Assembly (NCBI GenBank): GCA_004322365.1
Contig: SCTS01000006.1
Coordinates: 4,777-68,776 of the forward strand
DNA: 64,000 bases
DNA from: Patescibacteria group bacterium
GTDB lineage: Bacteria > Patescibacteriota > Minisyncoccia > Phycocordibacterales > Phycocordibacteraceae
Reading direction: 5' to 3'
The notes under the pieces were generated by a model that ran no database searches, was not told where the DNA came from, and worked only from the letters and a program-made list of their open reading frames with translations. Positions 4,430 through 55,794 of the stretch are shown piece after piece; the first letter of the stretch is position 1, and every line of letters begins with the position of its first letter. The translations under genes were made by a program, and so were the position numbers.

Positions 4430-4445
4430 ATATTAACTAGTAAGA

Positions 4446-5453: not shown

Positions 5454-5475
5454 AATTGATACTATTTCTCTGGAT

Positions 5476-5697: not shown

Positions 5698-5729
5698 ATA
5701 TTTTTACTTTTAATTAATTTTTAATAAGA

Positions 5730-6350: not shown

Positions 6351-6393
6351 AGTTTTGTAGTTACTGTAATAATGACCTTTCTAATAGAAATAG

Positions 6394-23846: not shown

Positions 23847-24602
23847 TTATGGAAGTTTCTGAAACACAAACAAATGCTCGTGCATTATCAATAAGAAATT
23901 CGCCTCTTTAGATTTAGTAACCCAAAATCCAGTGGCTTTGCAGTTAAACTGCCTCTTTATAATGTCTTCCTTTAAAACAAAACCGACTTTCAAAAATCTA
24001 TCCATCACCTTAAATGCAAGGGGTTGATACATTTTATTTCTGCGTGTATCTCCCATCAAAATGGCACAAAATTTTCCTGGCTTTAAAACCCTATAAAGCT
24101 CCTGTGCGACTTTCTCAATTTCATCAACAAAAGCATCTATATTATGTATCCCTGACAAATCCTCTTCTATTTTCCCCTCACTATATTTAATAATGTCTGC
24201 GTATGGAGGATGAGTTAAAACAAAATCAATTTCATTATCTTTAATAAAACTCATATCCCTCGCATCACATTTCACTACTCGCTGTTTTGCCTTATTATCA
24301 ACTTCAAATTCGAGAGATTTTTTCGTTCTCTCCAATGCCACCTCATTTACATCAATGCAAGTAATATGGCGATTTAATATCTTTGCTTCAATTGCTGTCG
24401 TACCCCCACCGATCATGCAATCGAGTAAATGATCCTTTTCTTTTGAATACCGCAAAATAAGGTTGCGAACAACCTCGGGTGCCCAATTACCTCGCCAATC
24501 TGACTTATGTGTTGCCCAATTACCTCTCCGTGGAAATGCCCAGACCGTGGTACATTCCAGTTCAAAATCGTCGGGATGAAGTTTGAAATCTTTTGTAGGC
24601 AT
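23847..24602 (-). CDS. DNA methyltransferase, N6-adenine/N4-cytosine class (second methylase of R-M cassette)
   Basis: AdoMet motif LLDCMIGGGTTAIEA, acidic motif II, HPPY catalytic motif. Confidence 0.65.
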   Translation of the reverse strand: MPTKDFKLHPDDFELECTTVWAFPRRGNWATHKSDWRGNWAPEVVRNLILRYSKEKDHLLDCMIGGGTTAIEAKILNRHITCIDVNEVALERTKKSLEFEVDNKAKQRVVKCDARDMSFIKDNEIDFVLTHPPYADIIKYSEGKIEEDLSGIHNIDAFVDEIEKVAQELYRVLKPGKFCAILMGDTRRNKMYQPLAFKVMDRFLKVGFVLKEDIIKRQFNCKATGFWVTKSKEANFLLIMHEHLFVFQKLP

Positions 24603-25411
24603 TATTTTACTTGTAGAATATATTTTTTACTTTTAGATACACTCATCCCGATACTAGATTCTGAGGTATCCTCAATCAAATCATAAGCCCAATACTCAAC
24701 ACCTATTTTATTTGTCACTGCCAATAAAACTAACGAATGCACTTTTTTATTCTGTAGCAATTTTTTCCACTTAAGCATCGGGAGTAAAGCCTGATTAACA
24801 TCAAATTTCGTTTGAGTAAACGAACTCTTCATTTCTACAATTACAACAGTCTCTGGCCACTCAAAACCTCCATCTATTTCAATTTGTGCTTTAGTCATAT
24901 CAACGCTCTTACCACCAACAATAAGATGAATATCTGCTTTTTGACGACCTCCTGTAAACAACACTCCATTTTCACTTAAACTATAAAAATCAGAAATGAT
25001 ACCAGCATGGTTTGCGATCGCCAAAAGAGTGGTCTCCCCAGGGTTTGAGTTTAAAGCCAGCGTTTCCTTGATTCCCGCAAGCATCCCTTCAGTTAATTCA
25101 TTTTTTATCTTAAAAATTCCACCAACTGTCGGCTCTTGAAAATCAATACCCGGTGGACTTTTAACAATTTTCCATGAACTACGACTTATGGGAATTTTCA
25201 CTATCCCTCTTTTCTGAACAGCATTCACATGTTTTGAACTTGAATGAAATATACGGATTTCTCCTTGCCCTGATTTCGTATATTTTGATAAAATAGGTTC
25301 TAAATCCGATTTATCATATTCAACAACATCAACACCTTTCGGTCTTTTGTCCCATTTTTTCTTTAAAAGAATCTCCCAAGCCTCCTCTTTCCATGAATCC
25401 TTCTTGGGCAT
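24602..25411 (-). CDS. putative Type II restriction endonuclease (middle gene of M1-R-M2 cassette)
   Basis: Assigned by its position between the two methylases, as in mboA-mboB-mboC. Possible PD..(E)xK region VVIVEMKSS. No direct family recognition. Confidence 0.4.
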   Translation of the reverse strand: MPKKDSWKEEAWEILLKKKWDKRPKGVDVVEYDKSDLEPILSKYTKSGQGEIRIFHSSSKHVNAVQKRGIVKIPISRSSWKIVKSPPGIDFQEPTVGGIFKIKNELTEGMLAGIKETLALNSNPGETTLLAIANHAGIISDFYSLSENGVLFTGGRQKADIHLIVGGKSVDMTKAQIEIDGGFEWPETVVIVEMKSSFTQTKFDVNQALLPMLKWKKLLQNKKVHSLVLLAVTNKIGVEYWAYDLIEDTSESSIGMSVSKSKKYILQVK

Positions 25412-25416
25412 AAATA

Positions 25417-26400
25417 TTAATAATTCGTTACCAAAACCTCATTGATTTTTCCTCTTTTCGAGGCATCTGAATTGATCATTCTTCCTGCTTTTATTTTGTG
25501 AATATTTATTTTTCTATCCTTAATTTCTGTATAGATTTTGTTTATGAAGGGAGTGTCAGAATTTGAAAGCATCACAAAACACCCACGCTTATGCAATTCT
25601 AAAAAAGTATCGCGAAGTTCAATTTGTTCTTTTTCTAAAAACTCTTCTGCAGTGTACGCAGTAAACGAAGCGGTTTTGCTAACTGGGTAATAAGGGGGGT
25701 CAAGGTAGATGAAGTCACCTTTTTGGGCGTATCGAAGAACCTTCTTGTAATCAGCAACCTTTATTTCCGTGTGTTGAAGTGTCTCTGACACTTTACGCAA
25801 ATTTTCTACATCACAAATGAGAGGATTAGAGTGCCTTCCAAAAGGTATATTGAACTTTCCACTTTTATTCACGCGATACATGCCGTTAAAACCTGCACGA
25901 TTCAAAAAGATAAAACGAGAAGCTACTTCCACGTCTGACAAAGAAACTGGATCCTGTGCACGCACTTTGTAATAATATTTTTCTTCGTACCGATGTTTTT
26001 TTAGAGACTTTATGAGCGATCCAACATCATCACGAATCACTTTATATGTGGTAACAAGTTCAGCGTTGCTATCAGAAAGGTAGGCCTTCTCTGGCTCAAG
26101 ATCAAAAAAAACTGCACCGCCTCCAACAAATGGTTCGAAATATCTATGTCGCACAGGATCAAACCCATCGGGAGGATAAAGCCCCAACTCCTTAAATTGT
26201 TTTAGTAGTTGTCTTTTACCGCCAACCCACTTTATAAAGGGCTTTGCCTTATGAGCGATTGCATGCGATGGCCCTAGAGGGAGCTTTCCTGTGACGTTTT
26301 TTACCGCAAGAACATGGGCATAGATACGATTGATGCCAAATTCAGCCTGATAGACCTTAGCAGCCTTTTTTATTACGGCGTCGTTTGTTACAGCGCTCAT
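25417..26400 (-). CDS. Dam-family (D12 class) N6-adenine DNA methyltransferase
   Basis: KWVGGKRQLL AdoMet motif and DPPY catalytic motif. 327 aa. Confidence 0.8.
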   Translation of the reverse strand: MSAVTNDAVIKKAAKVYQAEFGINRIYAHVLAVKNVTGKLPLGPSHAIAHKAKPFIKWVGGKRQLLKQFKELGLYPPDGFDPVRHRYFEPFVGGGAVFFDLEPEKAYLSDSNAELVTTYKVIRDDVGSLIKSLKKHRYEEKYYYKVRAQDPVSLSDVEVASRFIFLNRAGFNGMYRVNKSGKFNIPFGRHSNPLICDVENLRKVSETLQHTEIKVADYKKVLRYAQKGDFIYLDPPYYPVSKTASFTAYTAEEFLEKEQIELRDTFLELHKRGCFVMLSNSDTPFINKIYTEIKDRKINIHKIKAGRMINSDASKRGKINEVLVTNY

Positions 26401-26479
26401 AGAAGTTAATTATTAACCATATTGTAACATCCCATTTATTGGTGCGACTGCGCTAGGAACTTGGTACGAAGTTGGAACC

Positions 26480-27052
26480 TTATTGAGTAAAGCCTTCCGG
26501 TAATTCCATGTCAGAAGGTAGGCCCATTTGAGCTAAAGGGTTTTTAGTAAGATTAACTTCAGAAAAATGAGCGTTGCCTGAAAGGAACTCCTGCTGGAGT
26601 TTATCGGGCATGTATATTTTATTTGAGGGGGATTTTATGTTGTGCAGGTATATATTTCTCAAATTGAAGGTGAGTTCATCGACTGAGTTGATAATTTCTT
26701 GGCAATTGGAATTTGCTCCCGCTTCTCCGTATCGGTGAATCAAATAACCTTCCGACAATTGTTTTAAGAATTCAACCTTGTGCGGATCACCAAGGATTGT
26801 AGAAAAGTAGGGGTCTCTACTTTTGTACTTTATCAAAAGTTTAATTAAGTCGTGTCCTCGCTCTTTTTCGTAATTTAGTCTGAGTATAGCTTTGACGTAC
26901 AATTCGATTGCTTGATGGGCATTTGAACAGCCCACCGACACCCAACCATACGAGAGAGCGCGGCGTGCACTTATATAAAATGCGTCGGCGTTAGAAAATA
27001 AAAAAATAAAATCTAAGGCCCCATTTTTAATTAGTTCAAAAGGTTTATCCAT
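26480..27052 (-). CDS. HEPN-like helical protein
   Basis: All-helical; R-x4-H motif (RNIYLH) near the C-terminal region, consistent with HEPN. No closer family call is possible. Confidence 0.35.
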   Translation of the reverse strand: MDKPFELIKNGALDFIFLFSNADAFYISARRALSYGWVSVGCSNAHQAIELYVKAILRLNYEKERGHDLIKLLIKYKSRDPYFSTILGDPHKVEFLKQLSEGYLIHRYGEAGANSNCQEIINSVDELTFNLRNIYLHNIKSPSNKIYMPDKLQQEFLSGNAHFSEVNLTKNPLAQMGLPSDMELPEGFTQ

Positions 27053-27150
27053 AATTTGCTGGGAAATAGGGATTCGGATAATTTTCAGTCAAGCCCCATA
27101 AGGTTTTTAGCCGGTTTTTTGACTCAGACTCAAGCTCTTCGGAATGGAGA

Positions 27151-28038
27151 TCATGCCTTTAAATTTGCCTGAATTTCTCCAATAAGATCGTATATATAAT
27201 CGACCGGTAGTGCTACGGAATAACCCGAGTTTTGTAAATTTGTATTATATAACTCTGGAAATCGAACGTTCCTCCATTGATCAACAAAGGGAACGAACTG
27301 AACAACTACCCCAATGAGATGGATGTCTCCATTTCCTAACCCTGTTGCGTTCATTTCTAATACAAGCCCCCCGCTATTTCCACCATACACAGGACAGTCA
27401 AGAATCAAGGATTTATTTATATTATTTTTCCCAGCGATTATTCCTTTTCTAACCAAAGGGGAATCGTAATCTATCTGATTCATTTCGGGCGTACTGAGTG
27501 ACACTGGGTAGCCAAGGATAAATATATCGTTAGTGATTACCACGTCGTCGAATCGCCTGGACCCTGTCATATCATAATGTACAATCATTCCTTCGGATTT
27601 TTGAATGATTTGTATAGTTTCAAGAAAATCGATATTGCCATCTTCACTTCTCACTTCTGCCAATTTAATAACAACAATGTCTCCGCTCGCATGTGCTTTT
27701 AAATCATTTGAATCTGAGAGTGCTTCTATATTGAGCTCGAACATCTGTGGTTTGGTAGATACCTTTCCCGAAACTACAGGATAAGCAATCATCTTCATTT
27801 TCTTATCAAGTAGATTAAAAGCCTTAGTGACTTGATCTTGCTGATAGAGAACATGCTTTGCTGTCACCAAATATAACTGGTTACCATGTCTAATAATAAA
27901 ACCCGAGCCTGAACTGCCACCGACTAAAAGCTTTACTGGGTAGCTCAAGTTATCTGTAGGTAATTTCATATCAAGTTTTTTATACTTCTTGGACTTCAAA
28001 CCTATCGCAAGTTTGCTAGAAAACAGGGATTCGGTCAC
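27151..28038 (-). CDS. cytoplasmic trypsin-like (S1 family) serine peptidase
   Basis: Catalytic triad regions TAKHV (His), GDIVVIKL (Asp), GNSGGLV (Ser). No signal peptide. GTG start. Confidence 0.7.
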   Translation of the reverse strand: MTESLFSSKLAIGLKSKKYKKLDMKLPTDNLSYPVKLLVGGSSGSGFIIRHGNQLYLVTAKHVLYQQDQVTKAFNLLDKKMKMIAYPVVSGKVSTKPQMFELNIEALSDSNDLKAHASGDIVVIKLAEVRSEDGNIDFLETIQIIQKSEGMIVHYDMTGSRRFDDVVITNDIFILGYPVSLSTPEMNQIDYDSPLVRKGIIAGKNNINKSLILDCPVYGGNSGGLVLEMNATGLGNGDIHLIGVVVQFVPFVDQWRNVRFPELYNTNLQNSGYSVALPVDYIYDLIGEIQANLKA

Positions 28039-28277: not shown

Positions 28278-28348
28278 CTGGGGAACAGGGATTCGAACCC
28301 CAATTAAAGGCTTCAAAGGCCTCTGTCCTACCATTAGACGATTCCCCA
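28278..28348 (-). tRNA. tRNA-Gln (anticodon TTG)
   Basis: Manual cloverleaf: acceptor TGGGGAA/TTCCCCA, anticodon loop CTTTGAA, T-loop TTCGAAT, discriminator G. Confidence 0.8.
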
Positions 28349-30367: not shown

Positions 30368-30750
30368 TTGCCCAAAGTATAACAGAATACCCAGTTGGGT
30401 TTTCAACTCAAATGTTTCCTCTATTTCCCAGTCTCGCTAACTCAGCTTCTGCACCCTTCCAGCCCGCTTCATCCTTTTCTTTCAAGTTACCCCCAATTCT
30501 CCCGTTACGAAAAATGCCGTTCGGGCCAATAATAAAACGATAAAACACACCTCCGAGCTGTATATTTCTTGCTATCTCTTTTCCTGGCTCATTCATAGAC
30601 GAATAATGGATTAATCAATACAAAAGGTCAAATTACCGTATTTTAATTACGACCCCACTTCCCTCTGCCTCTCACTCATTCTCACAACACACATATATAC
30701 CCCTTATTCGCACTAATAAGGGGTATATATTCAAAAAAGTTTTCCGTGAG

Positions 30751-31074
30751 TTATTGCGACTTAACAATTTTCTTGGCGACCGCTCCAACAAAAAGACGAT
30801 ACGCTGGCCGGTCCTCCTTTTTGTATGTAATGAGTGCACCAAGAACTCTTTCACAGTGTTCACAAACTAACTGCTTCGCGGTTCGAGTAGATTCTGGAAT
30901 CATCCTATCGGTATACAGACGCTTCAACATTCCCGGTCCATCTTTTTGATAGAGACAAATCACAGCCTTGCAACCCTCACACGAAAGCTCTAGCAAGCGT
31001 GAATACCCACCTCTCGTACGCCGATAGGCATCCTTTTTGAATACAATCGATTTCTTTACACTTTTTCTTTTCAT
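30751..31074 (-). CDS. zinc-ribbon-like protein, paralog 1 of 33201-33533
   Basis: Two CxxC pairs (CEGC..CEHC). Shares ELSCxxC..YQKDG.G.L.R.Y..R ... AYRL with the paralog. Confidence 0.4.
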   Translation of the reverse strand: MKRKSVKKSIVFKKDAYRRTRGGYSRLLELSCEGCKAVICLYQKDGPGMLKRLYTDRMIPESTRTAKQLVCEHCERVLGALITYKKEDRPAYRLFVGAVAKKIVKSQ

Positions 31075-31098
31075 ACTGTATATCCAAGGTACCACGCA

Positions 31099-31656
31099 CT
31101 ATTCCTTTGACTCTTTCGTTAGACTCTCCAAGTACCCCCTATAGATTGTTTCCGCGACTTCCTTAGTGTGCCCCTCATGATTAACGACAGAAAGTTCAAA
31201 TGTCTCCTTACTCTCGCCCATTCTTTCTATCTCCTCTTCACTCTCCCTCATTCTCTCTGGTCTACTCTTCAAGCGTTCCCGTAATATTTCTAGAGAAGGT
31301 GGGTATACATACACTATATAGAGTTGACCGGGAAATATTTTTTTTACTACATCAAGTCGAGAAATAGGAAAATCAAGAACAGGAAAATTACCAGAATCAA
31401 AAGCATCTACTATAGGTTCATATGGTGTACCGTAGCTAATCCCATACAATTCATTAACTATAACGAATTTACCTGCATCTTCTAATTCTTTAAAAGTCTC
31501 CTTGTCCACACTTACCTTCTCATCCTCTCCTTCCCGCAACGGGCGAGTCATAAAAGGAGAAATGTATACGAAGCGAGGGTCTAATTTTTTCAATTCATTT
31601 ATTATGGTGCTTTTCCCAACCCCCGATGCACCAAGTAGAAGCAAGAATTTACTCAT
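31099..31656 (-). CDS. guanylate-kinase-like P-loop nucleoside-monophosphate kinase
   Basis: GASGVGKST Walker A, TRPLREGE (compare Gmk TRxPRxGE), ..YGISYGTP. Divergent. Confidence 0.5.
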   Translation of the reverse strand: MSKFLLLLGASGVGKSTIINELKKLDPRFVYISPFMTRPLREGEDEKVSVDKETFKELEDAGKFVIVNELYGISYGTPYEPIVDAFDSGNFPVLDFPISRLDVVKKIFPGQLYIVYVYPPSLEILRERLKSRPERMRESEEEIERMGESKETFELSVVNHEGHTKEVAETIYRGYLESLTKESKE

Positions 31657-32488
31657 TTCGAAATTTATTAACCTCATCTTTCATTCGATTCAATTCAACA
31701 GCAACATTATCGCGCCAATTTTTATCTTCTGTGCTATACGGATACAGAATTTTTCGAGATGAATTAATGAATACACCTCTTTTTTTACTGTCTAAAAAAT
31801 CAGTAATGTTCGTTGCATCCCCACCCTGTGCGCCGTATCCAGCTAACAAAATAGGTATATCGTCCGGGATACTAGAGCGTGGGCTTGTAGAATACTCCGC
31901 AAGCGAAGAAAGCACCGGGATAAGATTCTGAGCAGTATTCCATTCATTCACAGTTAAATCGAGTACATGTTCCCACATTTTTCTCCCGTCGAGCGCTGGT
32001 AAATCTTGAACGGAACTATCATTACTTGTCTTTACAAGAACAATGCCTGCTTTCTCGGGCCGATTTCTCACAATGTTTAAAACGTCTTCTCCCATATATG
32101 GGTTCAAGACAACTCCGTCAGCATCCAACTCATCAAAAATAAGTGACCCGTATGCTTCCATCGTATTATCAATGTCGCCAATTTTACAATCTACAAAAAC
32201 AGGTATGTCAGAATACTTTAGGTGTATATATTGAATAATATTTTTTAAAAGTGAGTGCCCCTGTGGATACAAATCAAAAAATGCTTTCTGAATTTTATAC
32301 GAGCACACACCTTCGCCTGTAATGTCGACAATGGTTGTCAAAAAACTATAGATTTTCTCTTCGCGATTTTCGATAGCAGAATCACGTGTGTATTCCTCTG
32401 GCATTTTTGACCAATCAGGGTCAAGACCTACACAAATAAGCGAATCGTTCTTCACCATTGCTCTGTCAAGCTTTTCAAGAGTACTCAT
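31649..32488 (-). CDS. pyrF: orotidine-5'-phosphate decarboxylase (long type 2 form)
   Basis: LICVGLDPD and FVDCKIGDIDNTM (K-x-x-D-I-x-x-T) motifs. Confidence 0.8.
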   Translation of the reverse strand: MSTLEKLDRAMVKNDSLICVGLDPDWSKMPEEYTRDSAIENREEKIYSFLTTIVDITGEGVCSYKIQKAFFDLYPQGHSLLKNIIQYIHLKYSDIPVFVDCKIGDIDNTMEAYGSLIFDELDADGVVLNPYMGEDVLNIVRNRPEKAGIVLVKTSNDSSVQDLPALDGRKMWEHVLDLTVNEWNTAQNLIPVLSSLAEYSTSPRSSIPDDIPILLAGYGAQGGDATNITDFLDSKKRGVFINSSRKILYPYSTEDKNWRDNVAVELNRMKDEVNKFRNE

Positions 32489-33204
32489 ACAAGATTGAGA
32501 TGTCCTAATTTGTCTTGCTTGGCACGCAAATGTGGCTCCGTAAGCTCGGTAGGCTGAATAACCACTGGCATTACCTCATGAATCGTATAACCGTTCTCAG
32601 CAAAAACTTGCATTTTCTTTGGGTTATTTGTAGCCAACTCAATCTTCGTTGATGTTGGTATATTGAAAAATTTCAAAATTGCAATTACACCACGGTAACT
32701 TCTAACATCTATTTCGCCATGAGTTAAAGAATGTGCGGCATCAACGGTATCTAAGCCGAGATCGTGCTGCAGTAATAATGTAGCAAGTTTAAATGCCAAA
32801 CCTTTACCGCGTCCATCTTGCTGAGGTATGTGTACAATCATACCCTCTCCCTTTGCCTGTATATCTTCCATTGTTTTGTGAAGCTGATCTTTGCAGTCAC
32901 ATGTTCTATCCCCAAAAACCTGACCAGTCTCACAGCCGGAGTCTATACGAATCGTTAATAAGTCTCTATTTCTAAAAACAGGAGAAAGAGATTGATCTAA
33001 TTCTGCATTAATAAGCACAGAATATTTCTGCCACTTATCACTTACTCTAAATAAAAACTGATGAAACATACCCTCCTCAGGCTTAATTATGCCCACCCCC
33101 TCTCTTTTGACTGTAATGTTGTGCACTTTACCAGCCTCAGTAACAGACACACGCCTCTTGATTGGGCGCATGCTTAATTTTGCTCTTTCAAGTGATTCAC
33201 TCAT
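32485..33204 (-). CDS. GTP cyclohydrolase II (RibA)-like enzyme
   Basis: Zinc motif C-x2-G-x8-C-x-C (SGCETGQVFGDRTCDCKDQL) with RibA spacing. Embedded in the pyrimidine cluster. Confidence 0.6.
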   Translation of the reverse strand: MSESLERAKLSMRPIKRRVSVTEAGKVHNITVKREGVGIIKPEEGMFHQFLFRVSDKWQKYSVLINAELDQSLSPVFRNRDLLTIRIDSGCETGQVFGDRTCDCKDQLHKTMEDIQAKGEGMIVHIPQQDGRGKGLAFKLATLLLQHDLGLDTVDAAHSLTHGEIDVRSYRGVIAILKFFNIPTSTKIELATNNPKKMQVFAENGYTIHEVMPVVIQPTELTEPHLRAKQDKLGHLNLV

Positions 33205-33533
33205 GATATATGGTTCTTTTTTGAAAATCGTCCTCGAATAAGGCGATATGCCAATCTGTCGTCTATATGTCGCATAGGTAGCCCAATAATGGAATCGCAA
33301 GAAATACAAGAAAAATTTGGCATATCTCGCTGGTCGACTATATCAGCGTCATATTGAAGGTTGGCATATGTATCGGGCCAAAAAATACGATTTAAGTAGC
33401 AACGGAACAAACTACCGCTACCGTCTTTTTGATAAACAAGCGTCTTTTCTTGACATGCAGTGCAAGACAATTCAATAAATTTTCCAAAACCCTCCCTAGC
33501 TCTGAAATACTTATCTTTTTTTAATTCGAAGCT
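33201..33533 (-). CDS. zinc-ribbon-like protein, paralog 2
   Basis: CTAC..CISC pairs; conserved blocks shared with 30751-31074. Start at MSFELKKDKYF. Confidence 0.4.
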   Translation of the reverse strand, partial: SFELKKDKYFRAREGFGKFIELSCTACQEKTLVYQKDGSGSLFRCYLNRIFWPDTYANLQYDADIVDQRDMPNFSCISCDSIIGLPMRHIDDRLAYRLIRGRFSKKNHIS

Positions 33534-33666
33534 CATTTTGTTTGAATGTAATATTCTGCTCTTTTTTTGAATACTGTCAAGTCTCACCAATTCCACACTA
33601 TCTTGGCGCTTTAATAACGATTCGTTTAAACAGAGCAAGATGGGAGGTGATGGTAGAATATCTGGA

Positions 33667-34737
33667 ATGGATTCAATAACCATCCGCAAACCCGACGATT
33701 GGCATGTGCACCTCCGAGACGGTGCAATGCTTGAAGCCGTTCTGCCATTTACTGCTCGTACCTTTGGACGAGCCATTGTAATGCCAAACCTCTCACCAAA
33801 CCCCGTCACCACAACTCTTGAGCTACAAGCATACAGAGAACGAATTGCTGAAGTAATTAAAGCGTATCCAAAATTCACACCTTTGATGACCTACTACCTC
33901 ACCGATAATTCTTCGGCGGAAGAAATCGCAAGCGGTTTTACGAATGGCATCGCTTCAGCAGTAAAGGCGTACCCAGCCGGTGCAACTACCAACTCAGCGC
34001 AAGGCGTTACCGACATTCGAAAAGTATATGAGGTACTTGAAGCCATGCAAAAAATTGGCATGCCCATTCTTATGCATGGAGAGACACTAAAAGATGAGAA
34101 TGGAAATATTATTGACCCATTTGATCGTGAGAAGGTATTTCTCGACACCACCCTTCCCACAATTCTCAAAAATTTTCCAGAATTGAAAATAGTTTTAGAG
34201 CACGCAACCACAAAAGATGCCGTGGACTTTGTACGAAATGAAAACAGTAACCGCCTTGGCTCAACAGTGACCATCCACCACCTCATGGAAAACAAAGCGG
34301 ATGTAGAGCATAGCGAGGAACCTGCATACCTTCACTGTATGCCAGTTATAAAAAACGAAGCGAACCAAAAGGCACTTCGGGAAGCCGTAACATCGGGTGA
34401 TTCACACTTCTTCCTCGGTACTGACTCAGCGCCACATCCAGTGTCTTCAAAAGAAAAAACTCCACCAGCGGCCGGTATCTTTACTGTTCCTTCAGCAATA
34501 GAGCTCTATACACAAGTGTTTGAAGAGATGGGAAAACTTGAAAACTTAGAAACATTTGCATCACTCAACGGCGCACAGTTTTATGGCCTTCCACCGAACG
34601 AAGAAACCATCACTCTTACTAAAAACCCTTGGACTATTGATTCACTGGTACACGTTTCAAACGGCGAAACCATTCGCCCTTTTGGCTACACCGAAGACCC
34701 AACGAAGCGCCTTCAAATCCAATGGAAGATTTCCTAA
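33667..34737 (+). CDS. pyrC: dihydroorotase (class II, E. coli type)
   Basis: IRKPDDWHVHLRDG N-terminal metal-binding motif; size about 355 aa. Confidence 0.85.
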   Translation: MDSITIRKPDDWHVHLRDGAMLEAVLPFTARTFGRAIVMPNLSPNPVTTTLELQAYRERIAEVIKAYPKFTPLMTYYLTDNSSAEEIASGFTNGIASAVKAYPAGATTNSAQGVTDIRKVYEVLEAMQKIGMPILMHGETLKDENGNIIDPFDREKVFLDTTLPTILKNFPELKIVLEHATTKDAVDFVRNENSNRLGSTVTIHHLMENKADVEHSEEPAYLHCMPVIKNEANQKALREAVTSGDSHFFLGTDSAPHPVSSKEKTPPAAGIFTVPSAIELYTQVFEEMGKLENLETFASLNGAQFYGLPPNEETITLTKNPWTIDSLVHVSNGETIRPFGYTEDPTKRLQIQWKIS

Positions 34738-34741
34738 GCGC

Positions 34742-35641
34742 TTAACCAAGCAACAATTTCAAAAGTGCCATGCGCACAAGAACACCGTACTCTGCTTGCT
34801 TGAAATAGACTGCGTGCGGTGAGTCATCAACTTCAGGAGTTATCTCACCTGCCCGTGGAAGTGGATGAATGAGTATAGAGCCTTCTTTCATCTGATCAAC
34901 CAATGCGCGATCAATAACATACTTACCGCGAAGCTTTTCATACTGATCGTGATCGGGAATCCACTCTTCCGCAATACGTGTTTGATAGACAACATCGGCC
35001 TCGCGCATTGCTCCTACTAAATCATCTGTTTCAGTAAACTGAACACCTCTCTCTTTCAAATACTCTTTCACATCGTCTTTCATAGCAAGCTCGGGGCCAG
35101 ACACGAATGTCATTTTTACATTGTTGTATTTGGCGAGAAGATATGCGAGCGAACGAGCGGCACGATAATACGCGAGATTGCCGACGAATGCGATGTGAAA
35201 ATCATCAGTGCGACCTATCTCACGAAAAATAGTATACAAATCAAGAAAGGCCTGTGTTGGATGCTGACCGATACCATCTCCACCATTAATGACGGAGACT
35301 TCCGAAACAGCACCAGCCCTCGCGAGCATTCCCACTTCTGGATGACGAAGAACAATCACATCGGCGTAGTTGTCTACGATACGAACAGTGTCTTCAATAG
35401 TCTCCCCTTTGGTTGAAGAGGACGACTCACTTGCATTCTCCATTGAAATAACATGACCGCCGAGCCGATACATTGCTGATTCAAAACTTAAACGAGTGCG
35501 GGTGGATGGCGCAAAAAATAACGACGCCATTATCTTTCCATCAAGATCCTTTGTGCGCCTCCCTTCAAGAGAAGTCGCAACCTGAAAAAGATTATTTAGT
35601 GCTTCGCGATCAAACTGCTGAGTTTCGAGTATATGTTGCAT
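34742..35641 (-). CDS. pyrB: aspartate carbamoyltransferase catalytic subunit
   Basis: STRTR carbamoyl-phosphate motif (FFAPSTRTRLSFE), HPLPR motif. Confidence 0.9.
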   Translation of the reverse strand: MQHILETQQFDREALNNLFQVATSLEGRRTKDLDGKIMASLFFAPSTRTRLSFESAMYRLGGHVISMENASESSSSTKGETIEDTVRIVDNYADVIVLRHPEVGMLARAGAVSEVSVINGGDGIGQHPTQAFLDLYTIFREIGRTDDFHIAFVGNLAYYRAARSLAYLLAKYNNVKMTFVSGPELAMKDDVKEYLKERGVQFTETDDLVGAMREADVVYQTRIAEEWIPDHDQYEKLRGKYVIDRALVDQMKEGSILIHPLPRAGEITPEVDDSPHAVYFKQAEYGVLVRMALLKLLLG

Positions 35642-35644
35642 AAA

Positions 35645-35698
35645 CTAGGTGTTAGGGGTTAGCGTTTAGGCGATGCTTCATCGGATCCGTAGGGATCA
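35645..35698. repeat. leader element: heptamer array plus conserved 33-bp two-hairpin block (TGATCCCTACGGATCCGATGAAGCATCGCCTAA in gene sense)
   Basis: Near-identical 33-bp block recurs inverted at 42827-42859. Confidence 0.6.
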
Positions 35699-35712
35699 CT
35701 TAGAAATAAAAA

Positions 35713-36789
35713 CTACGAGGTTTCGGGAAACTTAATCTCTTTTGCTAAGTTTGTATTCCACATGGCGCCAGTTGCACTCATGACAATGTCAGCTCCAGCG
35801 TGCAAGTACTCAGCATAGTCAGCGGGGGTAGTCACACCACCAACGCCGCAAATTTTAAATGTACCCCCACTAGAATCTCGAGCACTTTTCAGGCGCTGCA
35901 CCATCTCGAGCCCTGCCCATTTGATGGATGCGCCACATACACCTGAGCGTGAACGATTTGGCCCTGGGAGTGCCTGCTCGCCTTTTTCATCTACAATAGT
36001 TGCCTGCACTGTGTTGATAGCGGAAACACCGTTTGCATATTTTTCAGCAATTTCAGCGAGACGCACAACGTCTTCATTGTTTTTGTAATAGCCAACTTTG
36101 AGCATCAGCGGTGTTGAACCAATGACGGCACGCAATCCTTCACAGACTTTTTCCGTAACATCCAAGTTGTAGCAAACCAAGCCTTCGTTGCCGATGTTAG
36201 GACATGAAAGATTCACTTCCAAAACTTTTGCTCCTGTCTTCGCCGCAAGAGATCCTGCAAGAACATAGTCATCAATAAATTCATTTTGGCTTTGATCTGC
36301 TTTCACGGTACCCATAAAACTAAGTACAGCGAGCTGACCTTTTTTCTCATAGACAATAGCTTTCTTAAAATCATCCTGCCACACAGGTGTTTCTTTTGAG
36401 GGGACGCCAAATGAGTTGGTGATGGAAATAGGCTCAGTGTAATTAACATCTGCCACCAAGGCTTCTGCTTGCGCACGCTCTAGCGTGAGGTGTTCCCCCG
36501 GATGTACCGCAAGTACATTAGGAAATGGATGGCACGGGTAAGCGCCACTTCGTATTGTTTTATAAACTGCGATATCAAAACCAGTATCAAACGCACCCTT
36601 CATGAATGCGCTATTTAAAAGTGGGCCAGCAGGAATACCGAATGGTGTGTAGACTTTATACCCAAAAACATCATGCATTGGCTCGCCTTTCTCTTCATAA
36701 GCTGGAGCGTTTTTAAATCCTCCAAACGGACCATCTGTATAGTTTTCTTCGTATGACTTCGTGGGATCATAAAAGCTCGTAGTGGTCAT
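35713..36789 (-). CDS. pyrD: dihydroorotate dehydrogenase
   Basis: NLSCPN active-site motif, FMN-binding TIM-barrel pattern, N-terminal extension. Start trimmed to avoid overlap with pyrE. Confidence 0.8.
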   Translation of the reverse strand: MTTTSFYDPTKSYEENYTDGPFGGFKNAPAYEEKGEPMHDVFGYKVYTPFGIPAGPLLNSAFMKGAFDTGFDIAVYKTIRSGAYPCHPFPNVLAVHPGEHLTLERAQAEALVADVNYTEPISITNSFGVPSKETPVWQDDFKKAIVYEKKGQLAVLSFMGTVKADQSQNEFIDDYVLAGSLAAKTGAKVLEVNLSCPNIGNEGLVCYNLDVTEKVCEGLRAVIGSTPLMLKVGYYKNNEDVVRLAEIAEKYANGVSAINTVQATIVDEKGEQALPGPNRSRSGVCGASIKWAGLEMVQRLKSARDSSGGTFKICGVGGVTTPADYAEYLHAGADIVMSATGAMWNTNLAKEIKFPETS

Positions 36790-36790
36790 A

Positions 36791-37429
36791 TTATTGAGTG
36801 TACTCTTTAAGGTATTTCGCACCGTGACCAAGTTCAGTATTGATAGGAATTTTTTTCAACCATTCTGGAACCTCGTTTTCCGCATACGCATCAAGGGGCA
36901 TAAGTGAGAGAGAGTGGAATGGAACCCCAAGCAATTCTTGAATCAGTGTATCGGTTGAATTTCTGTTTATGAGTGCAACTGCCCCCACCACCTCACCACC
37001 TACTGCCTGCACCGCCTGAACAACCCCGTTGATTGATTTTCCAGTGTTGACGACATCTTCAATCACCACAACCCTCTTTCCTTTAACCACTGCGTCGTAC
37101 CCGCGCTTTGTAATAGACTGAATTCCATCAATTGATTCTGTGTAGGCACTCAAAACCTCTCTTCCTAAAAGCGCACTCATATGAAATGCCATCCACTGCG
37201 AGAGTGCTATGCCGCCAGTTGCAGGAGCTACGATGACATCGGGATTCCAATCAACGACCTTCTTTGCAAGTACTTCACACAGGCGTGAGGTAAGAGCAAC
37301 GTGGATAAGAATTTTATTTTTATTTATGTATACAGACAAATGCTTTCCTGACGTACCGATAAAATGGCCTTCAGTGATAGCTCCCGCCTCTTTTAGTATG
37401 TGAGTAATGTCGTCCATATTCCTCACCAT
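36791..37429 (-). CDS. pyrE: orotate phosphoribosyltransferase
   Basis: PRPP-binding motif VVVIEDVVNTGKS. Confidence 0.85.
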   Translation of the reverse strand: MVRNMDDITHILKEAGAITEGHFIGTSGKHLSVYINKNKILIHVALTSRLCEVLAKKVVDWNPDVIVAPATGGIALSQWMAFHMSALLGREVLSAYTESIDGIQSITKRGYDAVVKGKRVVVIEDVVNTGKSINGVVQAVQAVGGEVVGAVALINRNSTDTLIQELLGVPFHSLSLMPLDAYAENEVPEWLKKIPINTELGHGAKYLKEYTQ

Positions 37430-40400
37430 TTAAGCATCTTTCTTATACGCATCCCATGCTTTTGACTCTAATCCTTTCTTTCCTACTTCTGAGAGTGCCA
37501 TGGCAAATGCTTCTGCTAGCTGACGGTTAGTGATGAGCGGGATATTAAGGTCAACTGCCTTGCGACGAATAATAAAGCCGTCTGACGGATTATTCCCTCC
37601 GTTACCTTCTCGCACGAGCCCTCGATTTGCGAGATTGATAATGAGCTCAAGTTTTCCTGAATCAAGTAATGTCCCTACGTTCTCTTTCTTGCCGCTCTTA
37701 ATTTTATGCACGAGCTCTGAAGCAATACCGTGGGTTTTCAAAAACTCTGCAGTGTGTTCAGTCGCAAAAAAATTAAATCCTAACACTTTAAGTTTTTCTA
37801 TTGCAGGAAGAAGCTTTACTTTATTTTCCTCACCTCCAAGAGAAATCAAAATATTTTTCTTGGGCAATCGAAAACCAGCGGACATCATGGATTTCAACAA
37901 GGCTTCTGGATATGAATCACCAAACGCAGCCACCTCACCTGTTGATGCCATCTCTACATACCCAAGTGGATCAGCGCCTTTAATTCGACTGTATGAAAAC
38001 TGTGGCGACTTCACCGCAACATAGTCAAGTTCGAGCGTTTGATAGTGCCCACTAATGTCTTTGCCGAGCATTGCTTTTGTAGCGAGCTCAATAAAATTGT
38101 ACCCAGTGACTTTTGAAACGAATGGAAAACTACGCGACGCACGAACATTGGTTTCAATAACCTGTAATTTATTTTCTTTCGCCAAAAACTGAATGTTGAA
38201 TGGGCCAGTGATTTTCAACTCTTTGACTACTTTCTTTGCAATACGCTTTGCACGGCGAATCGTTTCAAGATAGGTGCGCTGTGGAGGTAATACTACTGTT
38301 GCGTCACCCGAATGTGTTCCTGCATTCTCAACGTGCTCTGTAATAGCGTAAATTTCGAGCTTGCCCTTTGAAGCCACGCCATCTATTTCAATTTCCCGTG
38401 CATTTTCAATAAATTTTGAAATAACTATTGGATGTTCTGATGACACATCAACTGCTCGCTCCAAAAATCGCATGAGTGATTTCTCGTCGGACGCAATTGC
38501 CATGGCCGAGCCTGAAAGAACATAGGAAGGGCGCACGAGAACAGGGTACCCAAGCCTCATAGCTGCTTCACCTGCAGCTTTTCGTGTAGTGAGCTCTGCC
38601 CATCCTGGTTGATCAATATTGAGCTTATCTAAAAGCTTTGAAAATGTGTGGCGATCTTCTGCGCGGTCAATGTTTTCAGGCGTGGTGCCTAAAATCTTCA
38701 CACCGTTTTTATGGAGTGGAAGTGCAAGATTGTTTGACACTTGTCCGCCCGTTGAAATGACAACTCCTTTTATTTTTTCAAATTGCACAATGTCGAGTAC
38801 ACGCTCAAGAGAAAGTTCTTCAAAGTACAATCTGTCTGACATGTCGTAGTCAGTCGACACTGTTTCGGGATTGTAGTTAATCATCACCGTCTCCTTGCCT
38901 TCGGCTTGGAGTGTTTTTAGCACCTGCACACTCGACCAATCAAACTCCACCGATGAGCCGATGGAATATGGCCCACTTCCAAGAACCGCAATTCCTTTCT
39001 TTCCAGGAGTCACATCGTGTTCAGTGCCGTGGTACGTCACATAAAGATAGTTTGTTTTTGCTGGAAACTCCCCCGCCAGCGTATCGATTTGCTTCACTAC
39101 TGGAGTGACATTCTTTTTTCCACGAAGTGCACGCACCGCCACTTCAGTCTTATCCGTAATTGTTCCAATTTGCTTGTCTGAAAATCCCGCCTGCTTTACT
39201 TGGCGTAACAATTCCACCGTGAGTGTTTCTTTCTTTAAGCGCTTTTCAAGCTCGATGATATTTTTCATCTTATCCAAAAACCATGTGGTGATACCTGAGA
39301 GCTTGTGAATCTCCTCAACAGAAACGCCCCGATGCAGTGCCTCTGCCACAGCAAAAACACGCCTCGTTGTTGGATCTTTAATTTCAGCTAGATATTTTTC
39401 TATATGAAATGCCTCGCCTTTATTTGCAGTAAATCCATCTGCTCCGATCATGAGCATACGAATTGCTTTCTGAAGCACCTCCTCAAAAGAGCGTCCTATC
39501 GCCATTACCTCTCCCACTGATTTCATTTCTGTTCCAATGGAGGTAACGGCACTATCAAATTTATTCAAATCCCATCGTGGCATTTTCAGTACCAAGTAGT
39601 CGAGTGCCGGCTCAAAACATGCGATTGTCTTTTGGGTAACAGCATTTTTAATAGTGAGAAGTGATTGTCCAAGGGCGAGCTTCGCAGCAATAAATGCCAG
39701 AGGATATCCAGTTGCCTTTGAAGCAAGTGCAGAAGAACGAGAGAGGCGTGCGTTTACTTCAATCACACGGTACTCACCCGTCGTGGGGTGGAGCGCATAT
39801 TGAATGTTGCACTCACCCACCACGCCAAGGTGTCGAATCGTTTTAATCGCCACTTCACGCAAACGGTGATATTCCTCATTCGTTAATGTTTGCGACGGCG
39901 CAACCACCATAGATTCACCAGTGTGAACACCCATTGGGTCAAAGTTTTCCATGTTGCAAACCACAATGCAGTTGTCATAGGCATCGCGAACAACTTCATA
40001 TTCCACCTCTTTCCACCCTGCAAGATATTCTTCAATCAATACCTGCGGGCTACGATGAAATGCTTCCGCAAGTCGAGTACGCAGTTCTGACTCAGAACGC
40101 ACTAACCCAGAACCTTCACCACCGAGCGCAAAGCCCATGCGAATCATCACTGGGTACTTCAGTTTTGCGGCGGCCTTTACCGCATCTTTAATATTTTCTG
40201 CAGCAAAACTTCTTGCAGTCACCACACCGATTTCCGAAAGACGCTTAATAAAAAGCTCTCTGTCTTCAGTGTCTCGAATAACAGACACGGGCGTACCCAA
40301 AACTTCAACGCCATATTTTTTAAGCACCCCACTCTTATCAAGCGCGAGGCCCAAGTTCAATGCGGTTTGCCCACCAAAGCCAAGAAGTATCGCATCAGGG

Positions 40401-40639
40401 CGTTCTTTCTCTATTACCTCTTTTGCAAAATGTTCAGTGAGTGGCAAAAAGTATACGGTGTCCGCAAGTCCTTTATCTGTCTGCACCGTTGCAATATTTG
40501 GGTTCATCAAAACAGTTCGAATACCTTCTTCTTTGAGTGCTTTGATTGCTTGAGAGCCCGAGTAATCAAACTCGCCAGCTTGCCCAATGCGCAAACCTCC
40601 AGAGCCGAGAATAAGAACTTTTTTGGGTTTTTTAGGCAT
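37430..40639 (-). CDS. carB: carbamoyl-phosphate synthase large subunit
   Basis: Duplicated ATP-grasp halves, oligomerisation and MGS-like domains. About 1070 aa. Confidence 0.95.
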   Translation of the reverse strand: MPKKPKKVLILGSGGLRIGQAGEFDYSGSQAIKALKEEGIRTVLMNPNIATVQTDKGLADTVYFLPLTEHFAKEVIEKERPDAILLGFGGQTALNLGLALDKSGVLKKYGVEVLGTPVSVIRDTEDRELFIKRLSEIGVVTARSFAAENIKDAVKAAAKLKYPVMIRMGFALGGEGSGLVRSESELRTRLAEAFHRSPQVLIEEYLAGWKEVEYEVVRDAYDNCIVVCNMENFDPMGVHTGESMVVAPSQTLTNEEYHRLREVAIKTIRHLGVVGECNIQYALHPTTGEYRVIEVNARLSRSSALASKATGYPLAFIAAKLALGQSLLTIKNAVTQKTIACFEPALDYLVLKMPRWDLNKFDSAVTSIGTEMKSVGEVMAIGRSFEEVLQKAIRMLMIGADGFTANKGEAFHIEKYLAEIKDPTTRRVFAVAEALHRGVSVEEIHKLSGITTWFLDKMKNIIELEKRLKKETLTVELLRQVKQAGFSDKQIGTITDKTEVAVRALRGKKNVTPVVKQIDTLAGEFPAKTNYLYVTYHGTEHDVTPGKKGIAVLGSGPYSIGSSVEFDWSSVQVLKTLQAEGKETVMINYNPETVSTDYDMSDRLYFEELSLERVLDIVQFEKIKGVVISTGGQVSNNLALPLHKNGVKILGTTPENIDRAEDRHTFSKLLDKLNIDQPGWAELTTRKAAGEAAMRLGYPVLVRPSYVLSGSAMAIASDEKSLMRFLERAVDVSSEHPIVISKFIENAREIEIDGVASKGKLEIYAITEHVENAGTHSGDATVVLPPQRTYLETIRRAKRIAKKVVKELKITGPFNIQFLAKENKLQVIETNVRASRSFPFVSKVTGYNFIELATKAMLGKDISGHYQTLELDYVAVKSPQFSYSRIKGADPLGYVEMASTGEVAAFGDSYPEALLKSMMSAGFRLPKKNILISLGGEENKVKLLPAIEKLKVLGFNFFATEHTAEFLKTHGIASELVHKIKSGKKENVGTLLDSGKLELIINLANRGLVREGNGGNNPSDGFIIRRKAVDLNIPLITNRQLAEAFAMALSEVGKKGLESKAWDAYKKDA

Positions 40640-41687
40640 GATTCTTTTTATACAAAGCAACAGAGGCTAAAAACTCATCGAAAACCCATGCGGTATCGGT
40701 AGGTCCAGGGGATGCTTCGGGATGAAACTGTACTGCAGACCACGGTTTAGAGCTGTGTTTAATACCCTCAATAGAACCATCATTCGCATTTTCAAACCAC
40801 ACCTTCCATTCTTTGGGTAATGTTTTTCGATTGATCGCGAATCCGTGATTTTGAGAAGTGATGTAACAACGAGTGCCGACAGTCACATCAGTACATGGCT
40901 GATTTTGAGAGCGATGTCCGTATTTTAGTTTGTAGGTTGATGCACCTGCGGCGAGAGCCATGAGTTGTGTACCGAGACAGATCCCAAGGATAGGAATATC
41001 TTTCTTGAATGCATTTTTTATATTTTGAATTGTGGCGTCACACATCGTTGGGTCCCCCGGACCATTTGAAAGAAAGAGTCCGTCATACTCCTCTTTTGTA
41101 AAATCGTAGTCCCAAGGAACACGAAGCACGGTGATACCAGGGCGCGTGAGTGAGCGGACAATATTTTCCTTCATCCCACAGTCAACTGCAATAATTTTTG
41201 TTGGGCCACTTCCGTACACACGCTTTTCTTTGATACTCACTTCTGCTACAAGGTTTCTTTTATTTGGATCCTCAAGAGCAATTGTGTTTCCCTTAGCTGA
41301 GAGTCCACCAAGCATGACGCCTTTTTCACGGAGCTTCTTTGTAAGCGCACGCGTATCAACACCGGAAATTGCAGGAATGCCAGATTTTTTCAACCACGAA
41401 GCGAGCGACTGCTTTGCAGATGCACTTGAGTAGGTCTCGCTGTACTCACTCACCACAAGCCCTGAAATATGAATACCTGTTGATTCAAAAAATTCAGGGT
41501 CAGGAACACCATAATTACCTACAAGTGGATAGGTCAGAACTAAAATTTGTCCTTGGTACGACGGATCAGTGAGTGTCTCAACATACCCAACCATCCCAGT
41601 ATTGAAAACAACTTCACCTGTTGCAGAAGTCTCTGCTCCAAAGCTTTTCCCTTCTATAACGGTTTTGTCTGCAAGGATTAATTTCAT
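40632..41687 (-). CDS. carA: carbamoyl-phosphate synthase small (glutaminase) subunit
   Basis: Class I GATase triad region (GICLGTQ, H..E). Confidence 0.9.
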   Translation of the reverse strand: MKLILADKTVIEGKSFGAETSATGEVVFNTGMVGYVETLTDPSYQGQILVLTYPLVGNYGVPDPEFFESTGIHISGLVVSEYSETYSSASAKQSLASWLKKSGIPAISGVDTRALTKKLREKGVMLGGLSAKGNTIALEDPNKRNLVAEVSIKEKRVYGSGPTKIIAVDCGMKENIVRSLTRPGITVLRVPWDYDFTKEEYDGLFLSNGPGDPTMCDATIQNIKNAFKKDIPILGICLGTQLMALAAGASTYKLKYGHRSQNQPCTDVTVGTRCYITSQNHGFAINRKTLPKEWKVWFENANDGSIEGIKHSSKPWSAVQFHPEASPGPTDTAWVFDEFLASVALYKKNHA

Positions 41688-55640: not shown

Positions 55641-55794
55641 CACACAATGAGTATACCCTTGAAAAGCGGCTTTCGGCCTGTATATGAGACCTTTCCACAC
55701 CTCGAAGAACCACATATTGACTTTCCTCATAGGAAGCACATGATTTAGAGAGATAGCGCATGATTATTGGTTTTCTAAACAGAAACTGAAACAT

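Follow-up and report, generated by a model that had tools for sequence, protein, structure and literature searches.

What kind of metabolism is encoded by a compact group of five genes in which proteins resembling RibA, PyrF and guanylate kinase are enclosed by two small zinc proteins? The question is raised by contig SCTS01000006.1 of a Patescibacteria group bacterium (assembly GCA_004322365.1), of which the 64,000 nucleotides at positions 4,777 to 68,776 were analysed (the window, in whose own numbering its features are placed below). An earlier note made from the letters of this DNA had described a minus-strand operon that reads zinc protein 2 (ZR2), a RibA-like protein related to GTP cyclohydrolase II (GCH2-like), orotidine-5'-phosphate decarboxylase (OMPDC, or PyrF), a guanylate-kinase-like kinase (GK) and zinc protein 1 (ZR1), and all five open reading frames (ORFs) were recovered in that place and on that strand. 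Our results show that the window has here one copy of a nucleotide-metabolism cassette that is self-contained and has spread horizontally. The Patescibacteria and DPANN are thought to depend on their hosts for nucleotides, and what is said of their nucleotide metabolism comes largely from annotation. In this case the pipeline names RibA, Gmk and PyrF cover a conserved unit together with a zinc protein that has no Pfam family, and two of the three names fail residue tests.

Recurrence and variation of the cassette

More than 400 protein clusters (at 90% identity) share more than 50% identity with the RibA-like protein of the window. A profile of this GCH2-like clade retrieved 66 loci from contigs of one genome per species; the gene content of each locus was determined by tblastn with the window proteins, and a gene was counted as a neighbour when it lay within 3.5 kb of the GCH2-like gene. 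By this measure a ZR gene accompanies the GCH2-like gene in 55 of the 66 loci, an OMPDC gene in 51 and a kinase gene in 47, and all three partners occur together in 42 loci, or in 32 of the 47 whose flanking sequence is long enough. The commonest gene order is ZR2-GCH2-OMPDC-GK, often followed by ZR1, and the median intergenic distances are 58 nt for ZR2-GCH2, -4 nt for GCH2-OMPDC and -6 nt for OMPDC-GK. The bacterial hosts of these loci comprise Zixibacteria, Gemmatimonadetes, Babeliaceae, metagenome-assembled genomes (MAGs) labelled Gammaproteobacteria and many classes of Patescibacteria, and the archaeal hosts comprise Micrarchaeota, Nanobdellota and Marsarchaeota; the nearest named relatives of the window copy are Patescibacteria/Paceibacterota MAGs. 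On a Mucilaginibacter contig the four-gene cassette lies beside ArdC, TrwB and an integrase, i.e., on a conjugative element. Clustering of all flanking ORFs showed nothing further conserved in more than 6 of the 66 loci, and no rib gene was recurrent in their flanks. The earlier idea of an unrecognised nucleotide-modifying or salvage step, or of regulation, is partly supported, and its framing as a pyrimidine operon has to be given up, since the cassette recurs autonomously and mostly without pyr neighbours.

The constant part of the cassette can be read from its variants. Cytidylate kinase (CMK; PF02224, 111-115 bits; TIGR00017) takes the place of OMPDC and GK in three of the loci (L045, L046 and L067), on a phage contig and in seven metagenome loci; three other metagenome loci encode GCH2-GK-ZR without OMPDC, and on one contig a fusion of NTPase_1 with ZR is followed by GCH2. 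Therefore, the constant core is composed of the GCH2-like protein, one or two ZR proteins and a P-loop nucleotide kinase or NTPase, with OMPDC present in most copies. The recurrent optional neighbours are pyrimidine enzymes throughout. A short thymidylate synthase of the methanogen type (ThyA) adjoins the cassette in 7 genome loci, and is found inside the operon in L055 and likewise in L064 and L066, and a cytidine-deaminase-like gene adjoins the cassette in L088.

The phage contig (L074, IMGVR_UViG_3300033143_004977) is AT-rich and 59.7 kb in length, and carries at 4201-6506 a reduced cassette of overlapping genes in the order GCH2, ZR, CMK and RlaP-family nucleotidyltransferase, with the terminase on one side and the SNF2/DnaB replication genes on the other. 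Scans of the 2.9 million viral contigs of IMG/VR found the cassette in one phage only, on two contigs. The GenBank phages gave canonical RibA/RibBA matches only and no cassette, the PHROGs and a BFVD fold search gave no match, and the PLSDB plasmids gave canonical RibA only, with neither ZR nor cassette. One GenBank phage match (H1) that had been considered as a cassette member was rejected when it proved to be a RibBA, and two plasmid paralogues (H63 and H65) proved unrelated to the cassette and were rejected as well. Another uncharacterised paralogue of the fold was seen on Ti plasmids, where a different short GTP-cyclohydrolase-II-like 'hypothetical protein' (4806-5387 of the Agrobacterium pTi NZ_KY000044.1, L085) adjoins a sulfatase-like gene and an MFS transporter.

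The enzymes, the zinc proteins and their surroundings

The RibA-like protein (32485..33204, minus strand, 239 aa) was identified by Pfam and NCBIfam scores, by alignment and by its AlphaFold2 model. It gives 97 bits on GTP_cyclohydro2 of Pfam, stays below both NCBIfam cut-offs for RibA (117.5 bits versus 148 on NF001591 and 103.6 versus 205.85 on TIGR00505), and gives 16 bits versus a cut-off of 403 on the URC1-type model NF005536. In a Foldseek search the model (pLDDT 91) matches E. coli RibA (2bz0, E = 3e-13, TM 0.84) and also the 'UTP cyclohydrolase' 7eev/7ej3 (E = 1e-6). About 65 cassette members were aligned with E. coli RibA and two canonical controls, and the three zinc cysteines (Cys54/65/67; C91, C102 and C104 in the window protein) are invariant in the clade. 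That the zinc site of GTP cyclohydrolase II is retained had been said before, and is correct; the spacing of x8 then given is not, as the motif reads C-x2-G-x7-C-x-C. Arg49, Gln70, Arg94, Lys101, Asp126, Arg128 (R168 in the window protein), Thr149, Asn150/151 and Lys154 are also kept across these members. Throughout the clade His51 is replaced by Asp (Glu in the phage), Glu53 by Gly, Asp58 by Gln or Met, Arg64 by Thr or Gly, Asn100 by Phe and Asn118 by Ala, and Tyr105 is replaced by Leu or, in side branches, by Met (L027, L030 and L048), Glu or Gln. The window protein carries Asp, Gln, Thr, Phe, Leu and Ala at positions 51, 58, 64, 100, 105 and 118, respectively, and the canonical controls retain His, Tyr and Asn. 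An invariant carboxylate (Asp; Glu in the phage) stands three residues ahead of the first zinc cysteine, and the proteins of the clade, which are 239-285 aa in length, have an extra N-terminal segment as compared to RibA.

Tyr105 is said to hold and position the zinc-bound water for attack on guanine C8, and Streptomyces (coelicolor) RibA homologues with Met in place of this Tyr reportedly stop at the formamide stage, in the manner of GCH III. In GTP cyclohydrolase II (GCH II), zinc is required for ring opening and dispensable for pyrophosphate release, Arg128 contacts the alpha-phosphate, and the conversion of a nucleoside triphosphate (NTP) to the monophosphate (NMP) and pyrophosphate is an intrinsic half-reaction (reviewed in PMC10366380). 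With His51, Asp58, Arg64, Asn100, Tyr105 and Asn118 replaced throughout the clade, the RibA-like protein is not a canonical RibA; it is a RibA-fold enzyme in which the pyrophosphate-release machinery and the zinc are intact and the pocket for the base and the water is remodelled. As the earlier note had it, no other riboflavin gene is present in the window, where tblastn with RibD, RibH, RibC and RibB domain gave no match.

The kinase (31099..31656, minus strand, 185 aa, with a probable start MSKF at 31656, although the ORF permits 31677 too) is a P-loop protein of the guanylate kinase fold. It gives 56 bits on Guanylate_kin of Pfam, and 80.5 bits versus a cut-off of 160.45 on the Gmk model TIGR03263. 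In an alignment of 40 cassette kinases with yeast Guk1 and E. coli Gmk (yeast numbering), the P-loop GxSGxGKS, R38, R41, E44, Y78 and R146, including the arginines for the NMP phosphate, are kept in 40 of 40. The guanine contacts are lost in 39-40 of the 40: Ser34 is changed to Pro (39/40), Glu69 to Val, Ala, Ile, Thr or Leu, and Asp100 to Pro (39/40). Tyr50 is changed to Lys, and the window kinase itself has S34 to P, E69 to I, D100 to P and Y50 to K. The earlier label 'gmk-like' therefore describes the fold and not the specificity, since three guanine-contact residues are lost, and by its fold and phosphate site the protein is predicted to be an NMP kinase and not a guanylate kinase. The exchange of this kinase for Cmk in the variant cassettes suggests a substrate of the pyrimidine type. 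With the same single change of Ser to Pro, guanylate kinase reportedly becomes the protein-binding GK domain of MAGUKs. The family with Pro at position 34 (31099-31656 of the window and 39 homologues) keeps its P-loop, and this hinge change could relate to the docking of ZR.

ZR2 (33201..33536, minus strand, 111 aa) and ZR1 (30751..31074, minus strand, 107 aa, isoelectric point (pI) 10) are true paralogues with 36% identity (E = 8e-19), and neither gives a Pfam or NCBIfam match above threshold, which bears out the earlier description of a paralogous pair outside any named family. Two CxxC knuckles, with one zinc between two beta-sheets, place ZR among the beta-tent folds; the scores on named families stay below threshold (19.6 bits versus 25.6 on RIG-I_C-RD, 18.1 versus 26.6 on Yippee-Mis18), and no PHROG matches ZR. 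A word-indexed search found 423 homologues and an exhaustive search 664 representative clusters. The homologues listed carry only spurious automated names in the source records, and no precomputed Pfam domain was present among the 120 of them. The four cysteines and the signature YQKDGxGxLxRxYxxR...RxAYRL are invariant, and the family is basic, with a median pI of 9.9. The prospect that the pair would resolve as a known ribosomal family fell away, as no full-length similarity to ribosomal zinc-ribbon proteins (S27e, L33) was found. A role of ZR as a PyrI-like regulatory chain of aspartate carbamoyltransferase was rejected too, because most cassettes are without pyrB.

The connection of ZR with the enzymes is seen in fusions and in gene order. 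GK-ZR fusions make up six full-length clusters (P0249, P0252, P0262, P0286, P0292 and P0331) and two truncated ones (P0254 and P0255), a ZR-GCH2 fusion (P0256) is directly followed by a short gene, and an NTPase_1-ZR fusion forms cluster P0347. An archaeal-looking contig carries the GK-ZR fusion of P0249 in an operon that reads GCH2-OMPDC-[GK-ZR]. ZR2-type genes, which as a rule adjoin the cyclohydrolase or the kinase, are mostly found upstream of GCH2 (44 cases) and ZR1-type genes mostly downstream of the kinase (21 cases), and loci with a second ZR always have GK as well (23 of the 44 loci with GK versus none of the 22 without it; Fisher p = 6e-6). ZR is thus a new family of beta-tent fold and without a Pfam entry, which is tied to the nucleotide enzymes by fusion and gene order.

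Some members of the ZR family were observed in other settings. Stand-alone ZR1-type genes in L077, L078 and L080 lie beside genes for NUDIX, ASCH (three tandem copies in L078) and LigT/2H phosphoesterase proteins, and their other neighbours are a YfbR-type HD nucleotidase, Ham1, NrdD/NrdG and a phosphoribosyltransferase; this company hints at a wider role of ZR in nucleotide house-cleaning or RNA-end metabolism. A ZR sub-clade (P0355-P0387; L073 7809-8297; L075) has long hydrophobic or low-complexity N-terminal extensions like signal or effector leaders, the motif YDxYTxRRGxPxML and no relation to the cassette. One ZR-like match was located on a giant-virus MAG contig.

In the window, the stop and start codons overlap as ATGA at the ZR2/RibA-like junction and at the RibA-like/OMPDC junction, which agrees with the co-orientation of the RibA-like gene and pyrF noted before, and the OMPDC and kinase ORFs overlap by 8 nt. 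A putative promoter-like site (33553..33580, minus strand; TTGACA-16 nt-CAGAAT, 10/12 consensus matches) lies upstream of ZR2 in the divergent intergenic region common with pyrC, and an intrinsic-terminator-like hairpin of 16 pairs (30693..30730, minus strand) lies downstream of ZR1 at the end of the five genes. The overlapping genes, with the promoter and the hairpin recognised by sequence match, suggest that the five genes form one compact transcription unit (30693-33580) divergent from pyrC. The earlier coordinates gave the right place, with an end at 33533 that has to be moved, as the ATG of ZR2 is at 33536-33534. An Rfam scan of the window found three tRNAs only, and no leader RNA or riboswitch.

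The OMPDC (31649..32488, minus strand, 279 aa) passes the cut-off of TIGR02127 (148.7 bits versus 110.6) and gives 60 bits on OMPdecase of Pfam, and the type-2 motifs (Lys, DxKxxD, TSN, GAQGG and the phosphate-binding Arg) are conserved in 40 cassette OMPDCs, so that it is predicted to be a canonical type-2 PyrF. The five-gene unit is flanked on one side, as previously stated, by pyrimidine genes (33640..41687) and on the other side by dnaX. The pyrimidine genes are pyrC (33640-34737, plus strand), pyrB (34742-35641), a pyrD-like gene (35713-36831), pyrE (36791-37429), carB (37430-40660) and carA (40632-41687), of which PyrC, PyrB and CarA score above their NCBIfam cut-offs and PyrE gives 146.7 bits versus 150.25. 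There is no pyrF among them, and the cassette OMPDC is the sole pyrF of this cluster. Among the 66 loci, pyr genes are adjacent only in L005 (98% identity) and L049 (74%), both of which are likewise without a pyrF of their own; the adjacency is specific to this lineage. Since the pyr clusters of the window, L005 and L049 all lack their own pyrF, the cassette OMPDC completes the pathway, and the pyrF-less cluster is the best evidence that this enzyme works as PyrF.

Several other features of the window were recorded. The PyrD-like protein is divergent (75 bits versus a cut-off of 269), scores as well on the model of the dihydropyrimidine dehydrogenase PreA and carries an N-terminal addition of about 130 residues, and its ORF overlaps the pyrE ORF by 41 nt. 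A stretch of low GC content (23847-28038; 0.37-0.40 versus about 0.43-0.45 elsewhere) encodes an N6/N4 DNA methylase, a DUF6997 protein, a Dam-class methylase, a HEPN protein and a trypsin-like peptidase and is adjoined by a tRNA gene (28278-28348); it looks like a restriction-modification or defence islet. A protein like the pilins of type IV secretion systems (PF18895) is encoded at 54762-55739, and the same family is found near a stand-alone ZR gene in L001.

Proposed function and competing explanations

Starting from the observed conservation of the cassette, its gene order, its fusions, its residue patterns and its folds, we tentatively propose a pyrimidine-nucleotide module around an NTP cyclohydrolase and not a GTP or riboflavin function, with a likelihood that we put somewhat short of even; the pyrimidine specificity, the order of the steps, the base chemistry and the role of ZR are what we infer. 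In this module OMPDC would make UMP, and in this lineage would also supply the PyrF step of the adjacent de novo pathway. The GK-fold kinase would phosphorylate a pyrimidine NMP (of the UMP or CMP type) to the diphosphate (NDP), which a general NDP kinase would convert to the NTP. The RibA-like enzyme would then release pyrophosphate by means of its retained Arg nucleophile and triphosphate site, and its retained zinc-bound water would hydrolyse the base, paralleling the URC1-type UTP cyclohydrolase on UTP. ZR would serve both the kinase and the cyclohydrolase as an accessory subunit, and would probably bind the phosphates or the base of the nucleotide. The UTP cyclohydrolase 7eev/7ej3, which is a URC1-type enzyme according to the citation of Zhang et al. 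(ACS Catal 2021) in PMC12507026, shares the GCH II fold, and therefore this fold can act on a pyrimidine NTP.

Several points count against the pyrimidine module. The hydrolysis of a pyrimidine NTP by the RibA-like enzyme is argued for indirectly, from the company of OMPDC, CMK, ThyA and the pyr genes. The clade is far closer in sequence to RibA (81-85 bits for the clade profile) than to the UTP cyclohydrolase 7EEV/7EJ3 (15.6 bits), and the latter, in a weak alignment anchored on the zinc motif, keeps the equivalents of His51 and Tyr105 that the clade has lost; the active sites therefore differ, and the analogy is one of logic and not of active-site detail. The kinase could also act after the cyclohydrolase, re-phosphorylating its NMP-level product, instead of before it. 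OMPDC is absent from about a fifth of the cassettes, the source of OMP is unexplained in genomes without the de novo pathway, and it is hard to see what a cell would gain from a hydrolase that breaks down UTP or CTP next to a biosynthetic operon. Stand-alone ZR genes are common outside the cassettes, many of them without a conserved neighbour, and thus ZR is not exclusively a cassette subunit.

The same proteins might instead serve the supply of deoxypyrimidines, which we regard as improbable. The RibA-like protein would then be an analogue of the bifunctional dCTP deaminase/dUTPase, which yields dUMP for thymidylate synthase either from dCTP, by zinc-water deamination and pyrophosphate release, or from dUTP, by pyrophosphate release alone, and OMPDC, the kinase and CMK would feed UDP or CDP to ribonucleotide reductase. 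Such a supply is in keeping with the methanogen-type ThyA that adjoins 7 loci, some within the operon, with the CMK variants, one of which lies in the replication module of an AT-rich phage, and with the stand-alone ZR genes beside NUDIX, Ham1, YfbR 5'-nucleotidase and NrdD; the new invariant carboxylate before the zinc cysteine could be a deaminase-style proton shuttle, and the step from NTP to NMP and pyrophosphate is intrinsic to GCH II (PMC10366380). However, ThyA is adjacent in only about 10% of the loci, one cassette already has a cytidine-deaminase-like neighbour, and deoxyribo and ribo substrates are not told apart by any sequence signal.

Doubtful, too, is the idea that the cassette makes and activates a non-textbook nucleotide, with the base recognition of the kinase supplied in trans by ZR. 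The RibA-like enzyme would turn an NTP into an unusual NMP, for instance GTP into a formamidopyrimidine nucleotide in a GCH-III-like reaction, and the kinase and ZR would re-phosphorylate this product for use as a metabolite, a signal or a nucleic-acid precursor. The loss of Tyr105 with retention of the zinc site, and the Met at this position in L027, L030 and L048, speak for such a product; the apolar base pocket of the kinase and the swapping of kinase types (GK-like, CMK, NTPase_1) around a constant ZR would suit an odd base, the gene order from GCH2 through OMPDC to the kinase is colinear with a pathway of this kind, and copies occur in a phage beside a replication/repair module and on a conjugative element. 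Yet OMPDC keeps a fully canonical OMP site and is evidently PyrF here, no plausible hydrolytic route was found from a purine NTP to an OMP-like compound, and the cassette is present in one phage only among 2.9 million viral contigs. A purine-to-pyrimidine conversion (from GTP through an OMP-like compound to UMP), which was considered for the colinear gene order, was rejected because no hydrolytic route puts the glycosidic nitrogen into a six-membered ring. If a non-textbook nucleotide were nevertheless made, the ultra-small symbionts of the candidate phyla radiation and DPANN, and at least one of their phages, would gain a hitherto unknown nucleotide metabolite or nucleic-acid precursor, and ZR would represent a new type of subunit, common to several enzymes, that presents nucleotides.

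For the zinc proteins by themselves there is a small chance that ZR1 and ZR2, instead of serving as enzyme subunits, regulate the operon by binding nucleic acid, in the manner of PyrR or of the NrdR zinc ribbon, and that the enzymes are ordinary housekeeping ones, an explanation that is compatible with the pyrimidine module. ZR proteins are small and very basic, the unit usually begins with ZR2, many stand-alone copies exist elsewhere in genomes, and beta-tent domains of the RIG-I type bind RNA ends. Regulators of this sort would have to be reconciled with two paralogues per operon, with fusions of ZR to three different nucleotide enzymes, with the presence of the same family in bacteria, archaea and a phage despite their differing transcription machineries, and with a window in which Rfam shows no leader RNA or riboswitch.

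An anti-phage defence or counter-defence through nucleotide depletion or modification might be suspected from the copies on the Mucilaginibacter conjugative-element contig and in one phage and from the patchy taxonomic distribution, but it is very unlikely, as PADLOC gave only weak P-loop matches for the kinase, the cassette is absent from GenBank phages and PLSDB plasmids, and here it is embedded in a biosynthetic operon whose pathway PyrF completes. Finally, the ordinary annotation, in which RibA for riboflavin, Gmk and PyrF have clustered by chance with two small hypothetical genes, has the best Pfam and NCBIfam matches (RibA, guanylate kinase, PyrF) and the fold match to RibA (TM 0.84) on its side and is still scarcely credible, being contradicted by the residue and context tests: 42 of 66 loci share the order across two domains of life, the RibA-like protein and the kinase both fall under curated cut-offs, Tyr105, five other RibA invariants and the guanine contacts of Gmk are lost, and no rib genes lie nearby.

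Should the unit be confirmed, RibA and UTP cyclohydrolase would be joined by a third functional clade of the GCH II fold, nucleotide enzymes would have a newly defined beta-tent family as their partner, and in hundreds of MAGs the annotations 'riboflavin' and 'guanylate kinase' would have to be corrected. The cassette proteins are small and soluble-looking.

Relation to known systems

The component superfamilies of the cassette are known, and the URC uracil-catabolic pathway offers a precedent for an operon built around an NTP cyclohydrolase. What is new, as judged against the databases and literature searched, is the cassette together with its RibA-like clade and its ZR family: no description of the cassette was found in the full-text literature searched, and none of the three is present as such in Pfam, NCBIfam, PADLOC or PHROGs.

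RibA (2BZ0) is the closest relative of the clade in sequence and in fold (81 bits, TM 0.84), and the two agree in the zinc site, in Arg128 as the nucleophile and in the residues that bind the triphosphate. RibA differs in keeping Tyr105, His51, Asp58, Arg64, Asn100 and Asn118, all of which are lost in the clade, whereas the clade scores below the RibA cut-offs and is found without a rib context. The UTP cyclohydrolase of the URC pathway (URC1/UrcA) also has the GCH II fold and acts on a pyrimidine NTP, as is proposed for the cassette clade, and each of the two genes stands beside that of a UMP-producing enzyme, which is uracil phosphoribosyltransferase (UPRT) in the URC clusters and OMPDC in the cassette. 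URC1 reportedly clusters with URC4 and UPRT. On the other hand, UTP cyclohydrolase is about 420 aa in length as compared to 240-285 aa for the cassette clade, and keeps the equivalents of His51 and Tyr105 where the clade has Asp and Leu; unlike UTP cyclohydrolase, the cassette clade is accompanied by a kinase and by a zinc protein of the beta-tent fold, and from its sequence it is not a URC1 orthologue.

The deoxynucleotide pathway of the phage T4 type (dCTPase, dCMP hydroxymethylase and dNMP kinase) and the bifunctional dCTP deaminase/dUTPase share with the cassette a logic in which an NTP pyrophosphatase yields an NMP for a dedicated NMP kinase; a ThyA-family enzyme may act on the NMP, and one phage carries GCH2-ZR-CMK. 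The pyrophosphatase folds are unrelated, however, and the cassette has no constant base-modifying enzyme and is overwhelmingly cellular. The beta-tent zinc domains nearest to ZR are those of MsrB, Yippee/Mis18, the cereblon CULT domain, GFA/CENP-V and the C-terminal domains of RIG-I, LGP2 and MDA5. The association of a four-cysteine zinc module with a P-loop nucleotide kinase, as in ZR, is also known from the zinc lids and lassos of kinases (the lasso of TK1 and the zinc lid of Gram-positive adenylate kinase) and from regulators of the NadR/NrdR type, and in the GK-ZR fusions the zinc domain follows the kinase at the C-terminus, as it does in TK1.

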